Below the pieces are notes generated by a model, which was not told the DNA's origin, did no database searches, and saw nothing but the letters and a program-made list of their open reading frames with translations. Positions 8,371-26,399 of a DNA stretch of 64,000 nt are shown here, piece after piece (within the stretch, counting starts at the first letter, position 1; the number at the start of each line of letters is the position of its first letter). The position numbers and the translations under genes are program-made. Origin of the DNA: Parcubacteria bacterium RAAC4_OD1_1 (GTDB lineage: Bacteria > Patescibacteriota > Minisyncoccia > Phycocordibacterales > UBA9973); the NCBI GenBank assembly GCA_000505065.1, contig AWSN01000001.1, positions 385 to 64,384 of the forward strand, written 5' to 3'.

Positions 8371-8656
8371 CACGATGTTAATAAGTCAAAAACAGTTGAA
8401 AAAGCGGTAAGAGTAATCTCTAAACGGTTTTACTTTTGTCCGCTCTAAAGGCGGATTTTTTTATTAAAGACATCGAGATGATATTTGAAAACTGAATGCT
8501 GTTCTAGCCCACTGTTATCCTATATTTTTAGGGTCTTTTAATCGGGCTGGAAACAGAGACGCAAAATTAGATATTTTTATTTGTTAAGGAAGCGGTTCCT
8601 TTGTTTAAAAATATCGCATTTTGATTTTTATCAAAATGGTTTTCAAATTTCCTAAT

Positions 8657-12078
<3,422 letters not shown>

Positions 12079-12195
12079 ATTAGGAAATTTGGAAATATTA
12101 TATTTGCGTCCGTCGCCCGACAATTTATTTGTTTAGGGTTATAGCATTCAGTTTTCAGGTATTATCAAATACTTGGATGTAAATTCCATTATTGT

Positions 12196-20627: not shown

Positions 20628-20714
20628 GGAGAGGTGCGTGAGTGGTTTAAACGGCAGTCCTGGAAAGACTGTGTATGAGAAATCGTACCGGGAGTTCGAA
20701 TCTCCCCCTCTCCG
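20628..20714 (+). tRNA. tRNA-Ser (anticodon GGA), long variable arm, no encoded CCA
   Basis: GGAGAGG-TG-CGTGAGTGGTTTAAACGGCAG-TCCTGGAAAGACTG(anticodon loop CT-GGA-AA)-long extra arm TGTATGAGAAATCGTACC-GGGAGTTCGAATCTCCC-CCTCTCC-G. Close to E. coli tRNA-Ser. Confidence 0.85.
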
Positions 20715-20785
20715 CAGAGTCGTGCTAGCACGAGATACCTAGAAAATAGCTCCTTGAAAGGGCTATTTTTTGTTATAATAAAAAT

Positions 20786-21850
20786 ATGAATTCAGAAGTA
20801 AAAAACGATTATATCGAAAAAGCCTTAAATGAACTTATTACCGAAATTGGAGTAAAAGATTTTGCAGATGAAGATAAATTAGTTTATCTTATTGAATATA
20901 AAAAAGTAAAAGAAGCAATAAAAGAAATTGCTTTGTATTTGGGATTACCTATTGAAGTAAAAATTTCTTATGTCCCAAAAGGATATCGTCCAACAGGTAA
21001 TGATGGTTTTTCTAGTACACATCTTGTAAAAACAGATAATTACAATAGAGGTGTCGGTGGAATAACAGCACAAGTTTCTATTCCATCAAATTTACCTTTT
21101 TATGGAACACCTAGTATGGTCAACTTTCCTATAAATGTTAAATTAAGTGAAAATTGTGCAGAAAACCCAAAAACTCTCATATCTATAATGGCGCACGAAT
21201 TATCTCACATCGTATTAAATTCAATGTGGCATAAAGAAAAAGAAAATGAATTTTATACAGATCTAACAGCAATGATTTTAGGATTCGCAAAGATAATGAA
21301 AACTGGCAGAAAAGTTGTTAAAACGACCCAAGTTTTAAATACTATACACACAGAAACTACAACTTATGGATATCTTTCAGATGATAATTTTAAATATGCA
21401 TTTGATAAAATAAAATTAATATTGAAAAAGCAAAAAGCTGAAGTAAGATCATTAAAAAGAGATGCTGATAAATTTAGTTTAAAATTGAAGGAAGCAAAAA
21501 AGTATTCTCAATATTTTAATAAATATCTAGAGTATTTAGGTAAAAATCCTAGTAATAAAATTTCACAAGAAGATGGACAAAAAATAAGTTCATTTTATCA
21601 GCATGACTATACTGGAAATTTTCAATCATTTATTAATAATAATGATCTTTTAGTCAAAGACGTATTAAAATATTCAGAAAATATTAAAACTTATTCAGAC
21701 AGGAGTATTGAAATGGTTAAAAAATACAAAAGACAAATTGAGTCTTCGTTTTTAGAATTAAATAAACAAAAGCTTTTAATTAAAAAAGATGTTGACTTAT
21801 TAGGTAAGTATATTGGATTTTTTGGTAAAATAAAATTATATTTTAAATGA
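20786..21850 (+). CDS. hypothetical protein with HExxH motif (MAHELSHIVLNS...), possible metallopeptidase-like; cargo gene 1
   Basis: 354 aa. Single HELSH motif followed by a coiled-coil-rich C-terminal half. No secretion signal. Confidence 0.5.
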   Translation: MNSEVKNDYIEKALNELITEIGVKDFADEDKLVYLIEYKKVKEAIKEIALYLGLPIEVKISYVPKGYRPTGNDGFSSTHLVKTDNYNRGVGGITAQVSIPSNLPFYGTPSMVNFPINVKLSENCAENPKTLISIMAHELSHIVLNSMWHKEKENEFYTDLTAMILGFAKIMKTGRKVVKTTQVLNTIHTETTTYGYLSDDNFKYAFDKIKLILKKQKAEVRSLKRDADKFSLKLKEAKKYSQYFNKYLEYLGKNPSNKISQEDGQKISSFYQHDYTGNFQSFINNNDLLVKDVLKYSENIKTYSDRSIEMVKKYKRQIESSFLELNKQKLLIKKDVDLLGKYIGFFGKIKLYFK

Positions 21851-22410
21851 AAATAAAAAGAATTCTAAATGATTTAGAATATGAAATAGTTGATCAAATA
21901 TTAGTTGCTGAAATATGCTTTAATATTTGTAAGACAACTCCTATTATTAACGGAAGAGGTAGTGATTTTATACCTTTTTATTATAATTTAAATTTTTCTA
22001 AAGGGATAATAACTCTTCACAGTTTGCTCTTATCTAAACAATTTGATGAAATAACAATTAAAAATTATTTAAAACAATATAAAACTGAACATCCACTAAA
22101 AAATATAGAAGAATTTGAATGTGAGTTAAGTAAATTATCTAAGGAATGTAAAGATATATTACCTATTTCTTTAAGAAATAAAATTTGTGCACACATAGAT
22201 CAAGGTTTTACACATGTAGATTTTACAAATGCTTATATCTACCCATCAGCAATAGAAATTTATATTAATTTAATAATAAAATTAAAGAAATTATTTTTTA
22301 ATTTTTGTGGACATGCAGAATATGACCGCCCATTTGATAATATTCTGGAACAAAGTAAATTTATAACAAAAATAATTATTAATAACTCCTCAAATGACTA
22401 CAATCTATAA
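21847..22410 (+). CDS. hypothetical protein (187 aa); cargo gene 2, translationally coupled (ATGA overlap) to gene 1
   Basis: Start codon overlaps the upstream stop by 4 nt. Cys/His-containing (CELSKLSKECK, CAHIDQGFTH, CGHAEYDRP). Confidence 0.5.
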   Translation: MKIKRILNDLEYEIVDQILVAEICFNICKTTPIINGRGSDFIPFYYNLNFSKGIITLHSLLLSKQFDEITIKNYLKQYKTEHPLKNIEEFECELSKLSKECKDILPISLRNKICAHIDQGFTHVDFTNAYIYPSAIEIYINLIIKLKKLFFNFCGHAEYDRPFDNILEQSKFITKIIINNSSNDYNL

Positions 22411-22411
22411 T

Positions 22412-23734
22412 TTAATATCTATCTAAAACTATTTTTTTATTTTTCAACAAAATCTTACTTTTTAAACACCCAAGTAGTTCTCTCTTCTCAGCATCTGTTC
22501 CATCTCTTAATACATACTTAGCATATCCTCGAATATCAATATTTGATATTTTTACTTTTTCTTTATTGCCAAGGAAGAAGTTTTGCATTTTAGAGAATCT
22601 TTCTATGTCTTCTTTAATCTTTTCCTTAACTTGGATTTCGTTAATATCTATTTTTTCAATTAATTCCTCAAATTGTTTCAATATTTCTTTCTCTTCTGTA
22701 TATCCACATTTACAATCTGTCCCTCTGGCTTTAGTGCAACCATAATATACATATCTAGTTATTGTTCCATTCTTGTATTTCTTAAACTTTTCATCTGCAC
22801 ATATTCCAGACCCACAAAGTCCACAAGTCATCATTTTAGTGAAAGCGAATTCTTTACCCTCTACTCTTAGTACTTGGCTCTTAATCTGTTCTTGAACTAA
22901 ATTAAATAATTCTTTAGTTATTAAAGGTTCATGTTTTCCTGTGTACCAATTGCCACTCTTTTTTGGATATTCAAATACTCCATAATAGAAGGGATTATCT
23001 AGTATTTTGTATATATTACCTAGACTAAGATGTTTCTTTCCATTAAAAGTTCTGAAGTTTAGGTCAAATCGAAGCCAATTATATAACTTTCTCCCACTCC
23101 AATGTTCATATGCAACTTTCTCAAACATTTTCTTGATTGTTAGTGCTCGTTCAGGATCTAATATTGCTTGGCATTTTCTATCTGTTCTTTTTTCATTTAA
23201 GTACCCAGTCGGTGCCACTCCTGGTCGCAGTCCCATTTCACATCTAGTTCGTAATCCTCGTTTAACATTTACACTTTTATTATCATTCTCTAGTTTTGCT
23301 TGAGAACATAGAATCATTAATAAAAACTTTTCATTTGGTGAGTTTTTAAAATGTTGCCCATATGTTCTGATTTCTAAAAGTAACTGTTGATCCATTAAAT
23401 CTACTACTGATCCAAGATCACCTGCATTTCTTGAAAGTCTATCTGGTGCCCAAGTAAGTATTCCATTAAATCGTCCACGTCGTATATCTTCCAATATTTC
23501 TTTGTATACTGGTCGCTGTCCTGATTCTTTGGCACTATGTGATTCTCTTCTAATTTCCACTACCTCCAAACCATCTCGTTCAGCAAGTTGTAACATTTCT
23601 TTAACCTGTGAATCGATAGAGAGCACCTGTCTTTCTTCAGATTCTGTTGATTTACGAGCATATAGCACATATTTAATTTTTGGTGCTTGAACTAATATTT
23701 CCTTATTAATCCTAGCTGTTGCATATGTTTCCAT
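22412..23734 (-). CDS. large serine recombinase (resolvase/invertase N-domain + recombinase domain + zinc-ribbon)
   Basis: KYVLYARKSTESEERQVLSIDSQ (catalytic Ser region), ...ILTWAPDRLSRN..., and C-terminal CGLCGSGICADEKF...YVYYGCTKARGTDCKCG zinc ribbon. 440 aa. Confidence 0.85.
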   Translation of the reverse strand: METYATARINKEILVQAPKIKYVLYARKSTESEERQVLSIDSQVKEMLQLAERDGLEVVEIRRESHSAKESGQRPVYKEILEDIRRGRFNGILTWAPDRLSRNAGDLGSVVDLMDQQLLLEIRTYGQHFKNSPNEKFLLMILCSQAKLENDNKSVNVKRGLRTRCEMGLRPGVAPTGYLNEKRTDRKCQAILDPERALTIKKMFEKVAYEHWSGRKLYNWLRFDLNFRTFNGKKHLSLGNIYKILDNPFYYGVFEYPKKSGNWYTGKHEPLITKELFNLVQEQIKSQVLRVEGKEFAFTKMMTCGLCGSGICADEKFKKYKNGTITRYVYYGCTKARGTDCKCGYTEEKEILKQFEELIEKIDINEIQVKEKIKEDIERFSKMQNFFLGNKEKVKISNIDIRGYAKYVLRDGTDAEKRELLGCLKSKILLKNKKIVLDRY

Positions 23735-24548
23735 ATACCAATGGTGTCAGAGAATAATAGTATTGCTAAGTCTATGCAGAATTAGGGATTCGTCGCATAA
23801 TCGTATTGAAAATAGTGACATTTATATGTAACCTTATATGTCTAAGTACTGTCACTTTTGTCACTTTTTGAAGTCGCACGAGATACGTCGTTATGGTAAT
23901 ATAAAATTATTAGAAATAATGTTACAGGGCTTATCGGGGAAAGGTCCTAACACGAGGAACACCGCAAAAAAACAAAATCGGGTTTCCCTCGAAAAAATGC
24001 GGCGTCGCGAAGCGACGACGATTGGATTTCCACTAATTTATCTTTTTCATTTTCCACTAACATCCATTTAGCCCAATCGAGTGGCAAAGAAACTTTTTTG
24101 ATTTCATTTATTTTATTGATTAATAATTGGGGTTCATTTTCTACTCTAACTTCTAGTTTTTCCGCGGAAAAAAGTGTATTATATATACATATAGTAGTTA
24201 GTTAATACTAATTATTGTTTTGTGTATATTATTAATCAATAGTTTTTTAAATCAATATAAAATTCTATTATTAGAAATAAATTTTAATAATAGAAAATTA
24301 TAATATGAAATATCAAAAATACACGCTTAGTTTTTTATTTTTATTAATGTTTGTAATTGCTACTCCTTCTTTATATGAGGAATTTTAGAGGTGTGTTAAT
24401 GCAGAATAATCTTGGTTTTAGAGTAGGAGATACTATACAAGTGATAAGTAAAATAATGGAAGATAATACTATCCAAGCTGTATTAATGTGTAAAGTTAAT
24501 TTACCAAAGGGTATTAGAAATATTAATAATTAATTAAAATAAAATAAA

Positions 24549-25382
24549 ATGAAATCTAAATTTGCATTTCTTTTGATTCTAGTCTTCTCATTTTTATTAA
24601 TCTCTCCTCCAATGTTTGCCTCTACAAGTGATGGAACAATAGACTCAACATATAAATATGCATGGGGCGAGAATGTCGGCTTTATAGATTTTGGCTCTAC
24701 GGCAGGAGCAGTACATGTTACAGATACAGCACTCTCTGGCTCCGCGTACGGAGAGAATATTGGATGGATAAATCTATCTACTGTTACAAATAATAATGAA
24801 GGAACTCTCTCTGGCTATGCTTGGGGAGAGAATGTAGGATTTATTGATTTTTCTAAAGTTACTATCGGTACGGATGGTGTATTTTCTGGCTCTGCATATG
24901 GCGAAAATATTGGATGGATAACATTTGGAACTACAGATAATAAAGTAGTAACAGATTGGAAACCAGCAAGCTCTAGAATTACAACCCATCACTCTTTTTC
25001 AGGTTCATTAATAAGACCAATAGTAACTCCTATAACTCCACCAATAACAACACCACAAGTTACACCTACTACCCCCTGTCTAAATGGAGCTTTATTTAAT
25101 ACAAATACTGGTTTTCCTTGTTCTGTTAATACTTCTAATCCTTCGGACGGGCAAGTAACTCTTACAAATATTACTCGTAATTTGAAACTTACCATTCCTC
25201 TTATGAATGGCCCTGACATCAAAGACTTGCAAACATACTTAAATACTCATTCATACAATTGTGGAATAGTTGACGGAATATTTGGCAATAAAACCAAACA
25301 AGCTGTTATTAAATTCCAACTAGCTAATCAATTAAAAGGGGATGGAGTCGTCGGCCCCATGACGAGAAGTAAATTAAAATAA
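24549..25382 (+). CDS. secreted tandem-repeat protein with C-terminal peptidoglycan-binding (PG_binding_1-like) domain
   Basis: Signal peptide. Four repeats of about 30 aa (YAWGENVGFIDF / SAYGENIGWINL). C-terminus LQTYLNTHSYNCGIVDGIFGNKTKQAVIKFQLANQLKGDGVVGPMT. Confidence 0.55.
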   Translation: MKSKFAFLLILVFSFLLISPPMFASTSDGTIDSTYKYAWGENVGFIDFGSTAGAVHVTDTALSGSAYGENIGWINLSTVTNNNEGTLSGYAWGENVGFIDFSKVTIGTDGVFSGSAYGENIGWITFGTTDNKVVTDWKPASSRITTHHSFSGSLIRPIVTPITPPITTPQVTPTTPCLNGALFNTNTGFPCSVNTSNPSDGQVTLTNITRNLKLTIPLMNGPDIKDLQTYLNTHSYNCGIVDGIFGNKTKQAVIKFQLANQLKGDGVVGPMTRSKLK

Positions 25383-25427: not shown

Positions 25428-26399
25428 ATGAAAAAACTTTTAAAAACAATTCCATACATAATCATTGCAGTATTAGTCGGAGTAACAGTAGCCTATGCAG
25501 GGACACTTACTCCCCCAGGAGCACCTGCCAAGTCTATGAAGTCACTCTCTGACTTATATGAACTTGTAAATACAGGAGCCAATACTCCCTCTACTGACTT
25601 CACTACTCCATCTACCGTCGCTTCTACTATGACATCTATCGGAGATGTATATGACACTCTTAAGACAAAAATAACAGATATAGACTCTACAAAGATACTT
25701 ACAGGAACTACGATATTTGGAAAAGCTGGAAGTGCGAGTGCTGGAGGTGTCAATTTAGTAAACATGTTCAATGGAACCTGTGGAAATGGAGCAGGTGCTT
25801 GCCCATCTGGAGAATTTACTGGAGGGACCCAAGCTCTCGGAGGAGTTGATGATGCTAACTCTGGCCCAGATATTCCATTAACACCACCAACCGATAGATA
25901 TGAAACTACTTGGACAGCTTGTAATGTTGGGAATAGTTACTGTGGGACAGAAGACACAGGAGCAAATATGAAAGACGAAGCTACAGGATTAGTCTGGAGT
26001 TATCCATTAAAAGGACTAGGTGGAGCAACTTTCGACACAGTAGCCCCAACTCCTGATCCGTATTGTCTATCTGCTACTTATGATGCATTGAGTTGTTATT
26101 GGGATACAGACACTTACTACTCTTGGGATGCTTCAAGAGTAGATAATGATAGTAAAACAGCACAACAGCTTTGTTCTGATCATACCGGCTGGTCTCTTCC
26201 TCATCAGAAACAACTCATGCAAGCTTATATTGATGGTGGATATGGCAATCTTGACCCAGTAGGTGTCGATCGCAATTACTGGTCGGCTACTACCCATTCG
26301 TACTATGCGAACTACGCGTGGGGCATCAATTTGCCGTATGGCTACACAGACACCTACACTAAGTTCAACAACAATAATGTTCGTTGTGTCCGAGAATAG
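25428..26399 (+). CDS. secreted protein with C-terminal DUF1566/Lcl-C-like domain
   Basis: Signal/anchor MKKLLKTIPYIIIAVLVGVTVAYA. C-terminal ...CSDHTGWSLPHQKQLMQAY...NYWSATTH...NNNVRCVRE matches the W(R)LP...L...VRCVR pattern of DUF1566. Confidence 0.5.
   Translation: MKKLLKTIPYIIIAVLVGVTVAYAGTLTPPGAPAKSMKSLSDLYELVNTGANTPSTDFTTPSTVASTMTSIGDVYDTLKTKITDIDSTKILTGTTIFGKAGSASAGGVNLVNMFNGTCGNGAGACPSGEFTGGTQALGGVDDANSGPDIPLTPPTDRYETTWTACNVGNSYCGTEDTGANMKDEATGLVWSYPLKGLGGATFDTVAPTPDPYCLSATYDALSCYWDTDTYYSWDASRVDNDSKTAQQLCSDHTGWSLPHQKQLMQAYIDGGYGNLDPVGVDRNYWSATTHSYYANYAWGINLPYGYTDTYTKFNNNNVRCVRE

Follow-up and report, generated by a model that had tools for sequence, protein, structure and literature searches.

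Excision by a serine integrase is expected to require a separate recombination directionality factor (RDF). In P2-like prophages and P4-like satellites, diverse anti-phage systems are swapped through a fixed slot. Patescibacterial genomes are tiny, and knowledge of mobile elements and immunity in this group is scant. The 3′ ends of tRNA genes are classically the targets of tyrosine integrases, as described in the Islander work. Tycheposons of Prochlorococcus are small cargo elements inserted site-specifically beside tRNA genes, with tandem pile-up and partial tRNA-like repeats; they come in cargo-type and in PICI-like (terS-carrying) forms, and large serine recombinases occur in 27 of 937 (bioRxiv 10.1101/2020.12.28.424599). 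Here we analysed a stretch of 64,000 nucleotides (contig AWSN01000001.1) of Parcubacteria bacterium RAAC4_OD1_1, hereafter the window, in which an initial annotation had proposed a tRNA-Ser-associated integrative element with a large serine recombinase (LSR) and a coupled two-gene cargo. Our data make it probable that positions 20716-23965 of the window (3250 bp) are a "mini" integrative element at the 3′ end of tRNA-Ser(GGA), equipped with a serine integrase and a candidate defence module. The tRNA gene, the two open reading frames (ORFs) A and B with their ATGA overlap, the convergent recombinase, both copies of an 11-mer and a palindrome had all been located correctly in that annotation. 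Related loci compared with the window carry L-numbers (L001, L096 etc.); among them are genome loci collected via HtpX and metagenome loci collected via the recombinase.

Insertion at tRNA-Ser(GGA) and the recombinase family

The integration target, tRNA-Ser(GGA) (20628-20715, plus strand), is preceded in the window by the housekeeping genes for SecD, SecF, LemA and HtpX; ARAGORN found the tRNA gene intact beside the island, and the same tRNA lies behind HtpX in relatives L096-L121. Species-representative genomes were scanned with HtpX for an empty site, which returned the same locus in relatives. The closest one, L096, has the order SecD-SecF-LemA-HtpX-tRNA-Ser(GGA), 218 nt, SIMPL, methyltransferase, with ORF A, ORF B and the recombinase all missing. 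Its SecD and HtpX proteins are 88% identical to those of the window and about 94% identity was found for the intergenic region that precedes the tRNA; the tRNA gene was accordingly dropped as a candidate part of the element. HtpX followed by tRNA-Ser(GGA) without the three genes was found in L096, L098, L099, L101 and L103, and this comparison with relatives bears out the annotated insertion of an LSR element next to tRNA-Ser. An exact look-up of the window HtpX matched the sediment metagenome SRR944699 alone and yielded no empty site by that route.

The boundaries follow from the native tRNA trailer. The L096 tRNA end reads CTCTCCGC|AAAAAAATAA, and directly 3′ of the tRNA stand AAAAAAATAATG... 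in L096 and AATAAAACGAAATCGGAATTCCCCGCGAAAATAAAATGC in L103. In the window this trailer is displaced: AAAAAAACAAAATCGGGTTTCCCTCGAAAAAATGC starts at 23966, right behind ...GGAACACCGC, and from there onward the window aligns to the L103 trailer from base 1, with a score reached by none of 2000 shuffles. The displaced trailer (23966-24002, plus strand), host DNA outside the element, begins AAAAAAA[C/T]AA as in L096. The sequence now 3′ of the tRNA (20716 onward) gave no alignment with the L096 or the L103 trailer. Because the native trailer resumes at 23966 while the tRNA is now followed by sequence matching neither trailer, the island was set at 20716-23965. A 5-bp repeat, CCGCA, stands at both junctions (20712-16 and 23962-66), and the GC content of the cargo is 21-24% versus 31-36% for the flanks and the recombinase. 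In relatives, the "empty" sites bear marks of their own: L096 8905-9060 reads ...ATCCACGAGAGTGACCGACCTCCCCCCCTCCGCCA, resembling the outer (P) arm of the element described below, and an inverted GCGGAGGGTAGCACGAC...GTCGTGC block lies just downstream of tRNA-Ser(GGA) in L099, L100, L101 and L120. Such scars suggest past insertion and excision, or decay, at a hotspot.

The recombinase gene (22412-23734, minus strand) is convergent with the tRNA and the cargo and encodes a protein of 440 aa with the Pfam domains Resolvase (PF00239, 6.6e-19, residues 23-168) and Recombinase (PF07508, 5.2e-14), and with a marginal Zn_ribbon_recom match (PF13408, 1.9e-05; 25.4 bits against a cut-off of 25.3). A YARKS motif holds the candidate catalytic serine. 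The protein matched the integrase family phrog_95 at 1.5e-59 and the CcrB model at 4.9e-33, the latter far below the cut-off of that model. A conserved leader and promoter region precedes the gene (23735-23805, minus strand), with nucleotide homology to related loci reaching about 23770-23805. Scanning of metagenomes gave at least 527 relatives among the 600 matching stretches listed, and in the best 80 loci the recombinase is 68-91% identical over its full length. In these loci the tRNAs downstream of the recombinase, which are of the Ser, Gln, Trp and Asn types with a few more, were convergent with it in 35 of 35 cases, at distances between 96 nt and 9.3 kb. Matches and relatives bear the taxon labels Patescibacteria, Paceibacterota or Nomurabacteria, and some relatives lie in IMG/VR viral contigs.

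ORF A and ORF B were absent from all of the 80 best recombinase loci and are, because of this absence, regarded as cargo rather than as part of the backbone. In this family the variable slot that separates integrase and tRNA is a hotspot for defence genes; in relatives such genes mostly occupy it, namely type I, II and IIG restriction-modification, Shedu (SduA_C), AAA_21 (AbiEii-like), PLD plus Snf2, and MADS components. In full-size members (10-18 kb), the end module and the recombinase are separated by an additional 8-kb backbone, with genes for a CI/LexA-like S24 repressor, a ParB-methyltransferase, TerS, TerL (phrog_38, 3.8e-75) and a Sie-like product (for instance L041 2016-10000; likewise L042, L048, L053, L060, L062, L066, L076, L082 and L083). 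No recognisable capsid or portal genes were found in these full-size relatives, which look like a phage satellite more than a complete prophage. Furthermore, the LOOT RNA (Rfam RF03000) was present in 21 of 24 scanned loci, approximately 150-300 nt upstream of the recombinase and always divergent on the opposite strand (L064 9722-9840, L041 9724-9841, L023 6388-6521 and 18 more, e.g. L031 3362-3486); to our knowledge, neither a function nor an association with particular genes has been reported for this RNA.

The window element is without the LOOT RNA and without packaging, repressor or structural genes, its genes being A, B and the recombinase alone. The same stripped layout was seen in L021, at tRNA-Trp and with other cargo, likewise without backbone and LOOT RNA, and in both elements the recombinase leader runs straight into the end module. 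The window element is a stripped "mini" member of a very large family of tRNA-targeting elements. We consider it unlikely that the island is instead a decayed, immobile prophage or satellite remnant with a retained but idle recombinase, in which A and B are ordinary accessory genes fixed in the lineage. The missing repressor, ParB-methyltransferase, TerS, TerL and LOOT RNA and the lack of an RDF candidate would fit such a remnant; against it stand two intact ends, an intact leader and a recombinase of full length, the recurrence of the mini layout with other cargo in L021, and a recombinase 91% identical to copies with different cargo. The A-B-recombinase trio recurs in other samples at 88-90% nucleotide identity with the ATGA overlap kept, which could be vertical inheritance, but these copies adjoin a tRNA with a different T-arm.

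The cargo pair ORF A and ORF B

ORF A (20786-21850, plus strand) encodes 354 aa, with a zincin-like N-terminal domain and a long coiled-coil C-terminal half, as judged from an alignment and an AlphaFold2 (AF2) model. In a 63-sequence alignment H137, E138, H141, N154, E155 and D159 are invariant, the histidines and E138 belonging to HELSH at residues 137-141. The AF2 model, with a predicted local distance difference test (pLDDT) score of 89, has a beta-sheet, an active-site helix and a Glu helix, placing HExxH and E155 on consecutive helices, and we infer that E155 is the third zinc ligand. More than 525 homologues were found. Weak matches among the 63 aligned homologues were to SprT-like (33/63), M48 (29/63) and M78 (10/63) peptidases. 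Foldseek gave no match at E <= 0.001 for ORF A in the PDB and BFVD, and its profile against PDB sequences returned coiled-coil noise alone. Homologues without ORF B occur in diverse surroundings: tRNA-proximal in L001, in a 70%-related LSR island with diversity-generating retroelement (DGR) and AAA_5/VWA genes; beside GmrSD, DGR and PIF1; close to a transposase and a tyrosine integrase; immediately behind an XRE helix-turn-helix (HTH) gene and next to AAA/VWA genes (L175-177); and solitary beside ribosomal protein genes. DGR genes (RVT_1 and bAvd) adjoin ORF A homologues in two unrelated contigs (L001 9201-10610 and L171 1-1090); no DGR template or variable repeat was found around the L001 homologue.

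ORF B (21847-22410, plus strand) encodes an all-helical protein of 187 aa (AF2 model, pLDDT 84). R110 and H116, forming R110-x5-H116 with the R-x5-H spacing of the HEPN signature, showed no exception among 52 close and 37 diverse sequences, and E68 too is invariant, even in distant members; the designation "Cys/His partner" in the initial annotation proved uninformative, as the family-invariant residues are these three. The family is small, with 56 close homologues and 29 representative clusters. HEPN_AbiU2 (PF18734) was weakly matched by 14 of 52 homologues (best E = 3.7e-4), and ORF B faintly resembles, and is on this basis tentatively predicted to be, an AbiU2-type HEPN RNase. A profile including distant members gave 82 matches, none with a Pfam domain, and the ORF B profile found no match among PDB sequences. 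The homologues are the constant last gene behind differing partners, often together with an XRE HTH gene. The partners are a PsbP-like protein with an HTH gene, beside other LSRs; a 150-aa protein; a KAP NTPase, in a DpnI/AAA island; an HTH gene and a Trypsin_2 protease; and, in L178, an HTH gene and proteins of 175 and 79 aa, beside a SocA_Panacea pair.

The ATG of ORF B overlaps the TGA of ORF A as ATGA (4 nt), so the coupling described earlier is real at this locus; as a fixed pair it does not hold, each gene being found without the other elsewhere. Reading the two genes as a candidate defence or toxin pair, as already suggested in the initial annotation, is reasonable because the same slot holds known defence genes in related elements. 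We infer that A and B form a candidate HEPN-type abortive-infection or toxin module in the defence-gene slot. In such a module B would be the RNase effector and A a sensor or regulator that restrains or activates B, possibly by proteolysis. PHROGs and NCBIfam searches of A and B gave nothing usable.

Just as unlikely as the decayed remnant, in our estimate, is that A and B serve the element itself and not defence, either with A as an ImmA/IrrE-type anti-repressor protease or with both as a stabilising toxin-antitoxin. The 10 homologues of A that weakly matched Peptidase_M78 (IrrE-like), an IrrE-like phage regulator among the best, though not significant, structural resemblances of A, and the position of A homologues directly behind an XRE HTH gene in L175-177 would fit this reading, as would the SocA_Panacea pair beside the B homologue of L178; the window element, however, has no HTH partner or repressor. 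The absence of A and B from the 80 closest recombinase loci, indicative of cargo, and the restriction-modification, Shedu and Abi genes in the slot of relatives further argue against it, and addiction and abortive-infection roles are not mutually exclusive.

Element ends and proposed attachment sites

The tRNA-distal end of the element is a conserved module of about 155 bp (23811-23965, plus strand), with homologous modules in more than 12 related loci. It comprises TGTCACTTTTGTCAC (23850-64), copy 2 of the 11-mer (23876-86), an extended -10-like TGGTAATAT (23894-902), the P arm TAACACGAG (23948-56) and a putative crossover CC (23962-63), the element ending at 23965. Across loci the layout is TGTCACTTTTGTCACTTTTT; CGCACGAGATGCGTCG; a TGnTATAAT-like box; CCTTACAGGGCTT...GGTTCTAACACGAG; 6 nt; CC-GC(CA). 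Upstream of the recombinase, a distance of 0.1-8 kb separates it from the homologous modules, and host housekeeping genes follow beyond them, for instance MurA-like and MiaA in L036 and TruB and a class-V aminotransferase in L016. A scan for sigma-70 promoters was not above shuffles in this AT-rich DNA, and an Rfam search of the ORF-less 23700-24600 gave nothing credible. The module was also considered as a tRNA-like or structured RNA, a candidate dropped when inspection by eye, without a formal test, found no consistent pairing.

On the tRNA side, the attL junction and the element-side P′ arm, recognised from the family layout, read CC-GCAGAG-TCGTGCTAGCACGAGATAC (20712-20738, plus strand) and hold CCGCA (20712-16), the palindrome TCGTGCTAGCACGA (20720-20733) and copy 1 of the 11-mer (20728-38). 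The palindrome, previously listed as a left-end feature in its own right, is the P′ arm. A hairpin, ATAGCTCC/GGGCTAT, with a following T-run (20746-20771, plus strand) was read from the sequence and is probably an element-supplied replacement terminator for the tRNA. 3′ of element-adjacent tRNAs stands (AG)TCGTG[C/A]TAGCACGAG or a variant; this motif was within 40 nt of 24 of 30 element-adjacent tRNAs and of none of the 6 other tRNAs on the same contigs or the 41 tRNAs in HtpX loci. The tRNA-side spacing (CC|CA|GA)-GCxxxx-TCGTG had the same 6-nt offset in 23 of 31 tRNA-adjacent sites, and the spacing CACGA-xxxxxx-(CC|CA)-GC was found in 12-13 of approximately 14 true end modules. The crossover-side dinucleotide varies with the type of tRNA: sites at Ser and Trp have CC, those at Gln have CA and those at Asn have GA. 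It was identical between the two ends in all eight loci having both.

When joined, the window ends read ...TAACACGAG-GAACA-CC-GCAGAG-TCGTGCTA..., an imperfect inverted repeat whose two TARCACGA arms each stand 6 nt from the CC. The joined ends would thus constitute a serine-integrase attP centred on the non-palindromic CC, and the crossover would fall at CC in 20712-20713, the last two bases of the 3′ strand of the acceptor stem. The tRNA acceptor and T-arm with the trailer would serve as attB and the two element ends as attP, and recombination between both would insert the island. The element-side arm would rebuild the last tRNA bases and bring a new terminator, and for this reason the tRNA would stay intact; in the window the arm GCAGAG restores the native CCGCA. 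Element-adjacent tRNAs usually encode CCA (GCCAAG-TCGTG), unlike other tRNAs on the same contigs, presumably because the bases 3′ of the crossover come from the element-side arm. The predicted junctions are CCCCCTCTCCGCAAAAAAACAAAATCGGG for the empty site and CACGAGGAACACCGCAGAGTCGTGCTAGC for the circle; for excision the element probably depends on a factor supplied in trans, unless it is fixed in place. In L042 and L048 an element end is directly followed by another element start, which could reflect tandem insertions, and tRNA 3′ fragments lie between repeated motifs in L039 and L043; both are consistent with serial insertion.

A tRNA-Ser with the unusual anticodon ACT (ARAGORN) abuts elements in L001 (7778-7867), L022 (5800-5889), L056 (11689-11778), L073 (17791-17880) and L102 (15713-15800). 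These genes encode CCA, unlike neighbouring tRNAs, and in L001, L056 and L102 the contig has an ordinary tRNA-Ser(GCT) as well (adjacent in L001 and L102).

The 11-mer GCACGAGATAC has exactly two copies in the 64 kb, a direct repeat with its copies at 20728 and 23876; when up to one mismatch is tolerated, the expected number of matches is 0.25, and two were reached in 2 of 100 shuffles. The repeat is not due to chance because the wider motif T[A/C][G/A]CACGAG has 5 copies in the window versus 0.43 expected, a count reached in none of 100 shuffles. Three of the five lie at the island ends, where four copies of the motif were placed by position (20720-27, inverted; 20726-34; 23874-82; 23948-56), and both 11-mer copies coincide with motif positions conserved in related elements. 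The initial annotation was to be contradicted if the 11-mer were part of a widespread repeat, and this is so to a limited extent: it is a family-wide subterminal motif of the elements; a genome-wide repeat it is not. The 11-mers are subterminal copies of the CACGAG motif, probably extra protein-binding or regulatory sites and not the place of crossover. It is highly improbable that they are the att core of an element ending at 23886 (about 20728-23886), as first annotated: such a core, for which the two directly oriented exact copies bracketing three genes and a homologous pair GCACGAGATGC in L073 might speak, would predict an empty site tRNA-...GCACGAGATAC-GTCGTTATGG, but related elements that sit at other tRNAs and in other hosts share the conserved 79 bp right of copy 2 (23887-23965), the homology to the host trailer begins at 23966 and not at 23887, most family members have no long repeat there, and copy 2 of L073 sits 21 nt from the recombinase start within the conserved leader. 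Since copy 2 of the window lies within the conserved end module, the 11-mer is one copy of the family end motif and not an att core. A longest-common-substring search for att sites across the family found long repeats in the window and L073 alone, and the 11-mer was for this reason dropped as core.

Several observations weigh against the reading as a mini element with a candidate defence module. Neither a circular form nor an attP junction was recovered, and a scan of viral contigs with the attP pattern gave 5 chance matches, in GC-rich DNA that has no recombinase gene. The 3.25-kb element contains no obvious RDF gene, so that present-day mobility is unproven. The crossover is positioned solely by symmetry and junction identity. 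As for the cargo, ORF A scored 15.6 bits against M48 (cut-off 20.3) and reached no curated family threshold. The window ORF B has no Pfam match, and its distant relatives scored 12.6-15.9 bits against the PF18734 cut-off of 26.8; Foldseek of ORF B against the PDB gave no significant match, the best being the HEPN toxin HepT (E = 1.5), and an exhaustive profile search returned 29 representative clusters, none annotated. In addition, the two genes are no obligate pair, with A found without B in L001, L004 and L171-177, and B never paired with A beyond near-identical copies. No family in PADLOC-DB v2 matched A, B or the recombinase at E <= 0.1, and the assignment to defence comes from genomic location alone.

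A more far-reaching interpretation joins these parts. The recombinase would belong to an integrase clade specialised for tRNA acceptor ends, with an attP that mimics the tRNA 3′ end and rewrites the terminus, often installing CCA, and with the LOOT RNA as dedicated regulator or cofactor; A and B would in turn be a protease-gated HEPN abortive-infection system in which B is a portable RNase effector plugging into zincin-like, trypsin-like protease, KAP NTPase or PsbP-like sensors. As a whole this is speculative and we think it rather doubtful, if slightly less so than the decayed remnant or the regulatory module.

On the right, the island is flanked by approximately 0.8 kb without ORF, followed by genes for a PG_binding_1 protein (24549-25382), an Lcl_C protein (25428-26399), a SIMPL protein and a methyltransferase. 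The PG_binding_1 and Lcl_C genes lie outside the element and are also missing between tRNA and SIMPL in L096. Similar genes border the end module in L082, and we treated the two as variable host genes. L096 likewise lacks the ORF-less 23966-24548, in which a GC-rich hairpin occupies 24003-24020, and 24365-24401 weakly resembles the promoter and 5′ end of the tRNA (73%). Elsewhere in the window, the 23S rRNA gene (8651-12086) has 3436 nt versus 2925 nt in the model; its segment 11575-11745 is group-I-intron-like (41.8 bits, E = 1.6e-8, the gathering score of 50 not being reached), and the gene contains no ORF of 90 aa or more, the listed ORF 8621-8959 merely overlapping its 5′ end. The 64-kb window has no 16S rRNA gene.

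Comparison with described systems

Our literature search found no paper joining Patescibacteria, prophage and serine recombinase, and none describing the tRNA 3′-end targeting, the tRNA-mimicking attP, the abundance in the candidate phyla radiation (CPR) or the LOOT RNA association of this family, which is apparently undescribed. The island opens onto a very abundant family of serine-integrase elements, represented by at least 527 copies in a single metagenome collection, that lands at tRNA 3′ ends, accumulates in tandem and shuttles defence genes. The compact 440-aa integrase and a simple att architecture readable from sequence offer a lead for engineering, the orphan LOOT RNA motif gains a genomic context, and the HExxH/HEPN-like pair is a directly testable candidate anti-phage or toxin module.

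With phiC31, Bxb1, the A118 prophages and CcrA/B of SCCmec, the window recombinase shares the three-domain LSR architecture, a very short junction identity and att sites built as imperfect inverted repeats; with 440 aa it is short in comparison. Unlike these systems, the family targets tRNA genes (Ser, Gln, Trp, Asn) at their very 3′ end. Moreover, in contrast to known serine-integrase elements, its P arm ends like a tRNA 3′ end, CCGC(CA) or CAGCCA, and its P′ arm rewrites the tRNA terminus, often adding an encoded CCA.

Regarding the cargo, ORF A resembles ImmA/IrrE (M78), SprT-like and M48 peptidases in its invariant HExxH and a Glu 14 residues on, in the next helix, and some of its homologues lie behind an XRE HTH gene as in ImmA/ImmR pairs; it differs from M78, SprT-like and M48 proteins in its coiled-coil C-terminal half of about 150 residues, all matches to them being below threshold. 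AbiU2 operons occur with Sel1-repeat proteins and within restriction-modification operons (Anantharaman et al. 2013, PMC3710099). ORF B is similar to AbiU2 in its Rx4-6H signature, here R-x5-H, in being small and all-helical, and in its variable operon partners and location near restriction-modification genes. Unlike AbiU2, its partners are zincin-like, Trypsin_2, KAP NTPase or PsbP-like proteins, its PF18734 matches are sub-threshold and no structural match is significant.

As in the P2 and P4 hotspots, a fixed slot beside the integrase or att end takes up diverse anti-phage systems, in the relatives studied here restriction-modification, Shedu and AbiEii-like genes; the integrase is, in contrast to these hotspots, of the serine type, the hosts belong to the CPR, and the window copy is without a phage or satellite backbone. 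Likened by description and not by sequence, the family agrees with the tycheposons in consisting of small, site-specific, tRNA-adjacent cargo elements that accumulate in tandem and exist in cargo and terS forms. Nevertheless, in contrast to the tycheposons, no replication genes were seen in the window, the host is a patescibacterium, the cargo serves mostly defence rather than nutrient acquisition, and a serine recombinase is the rule.

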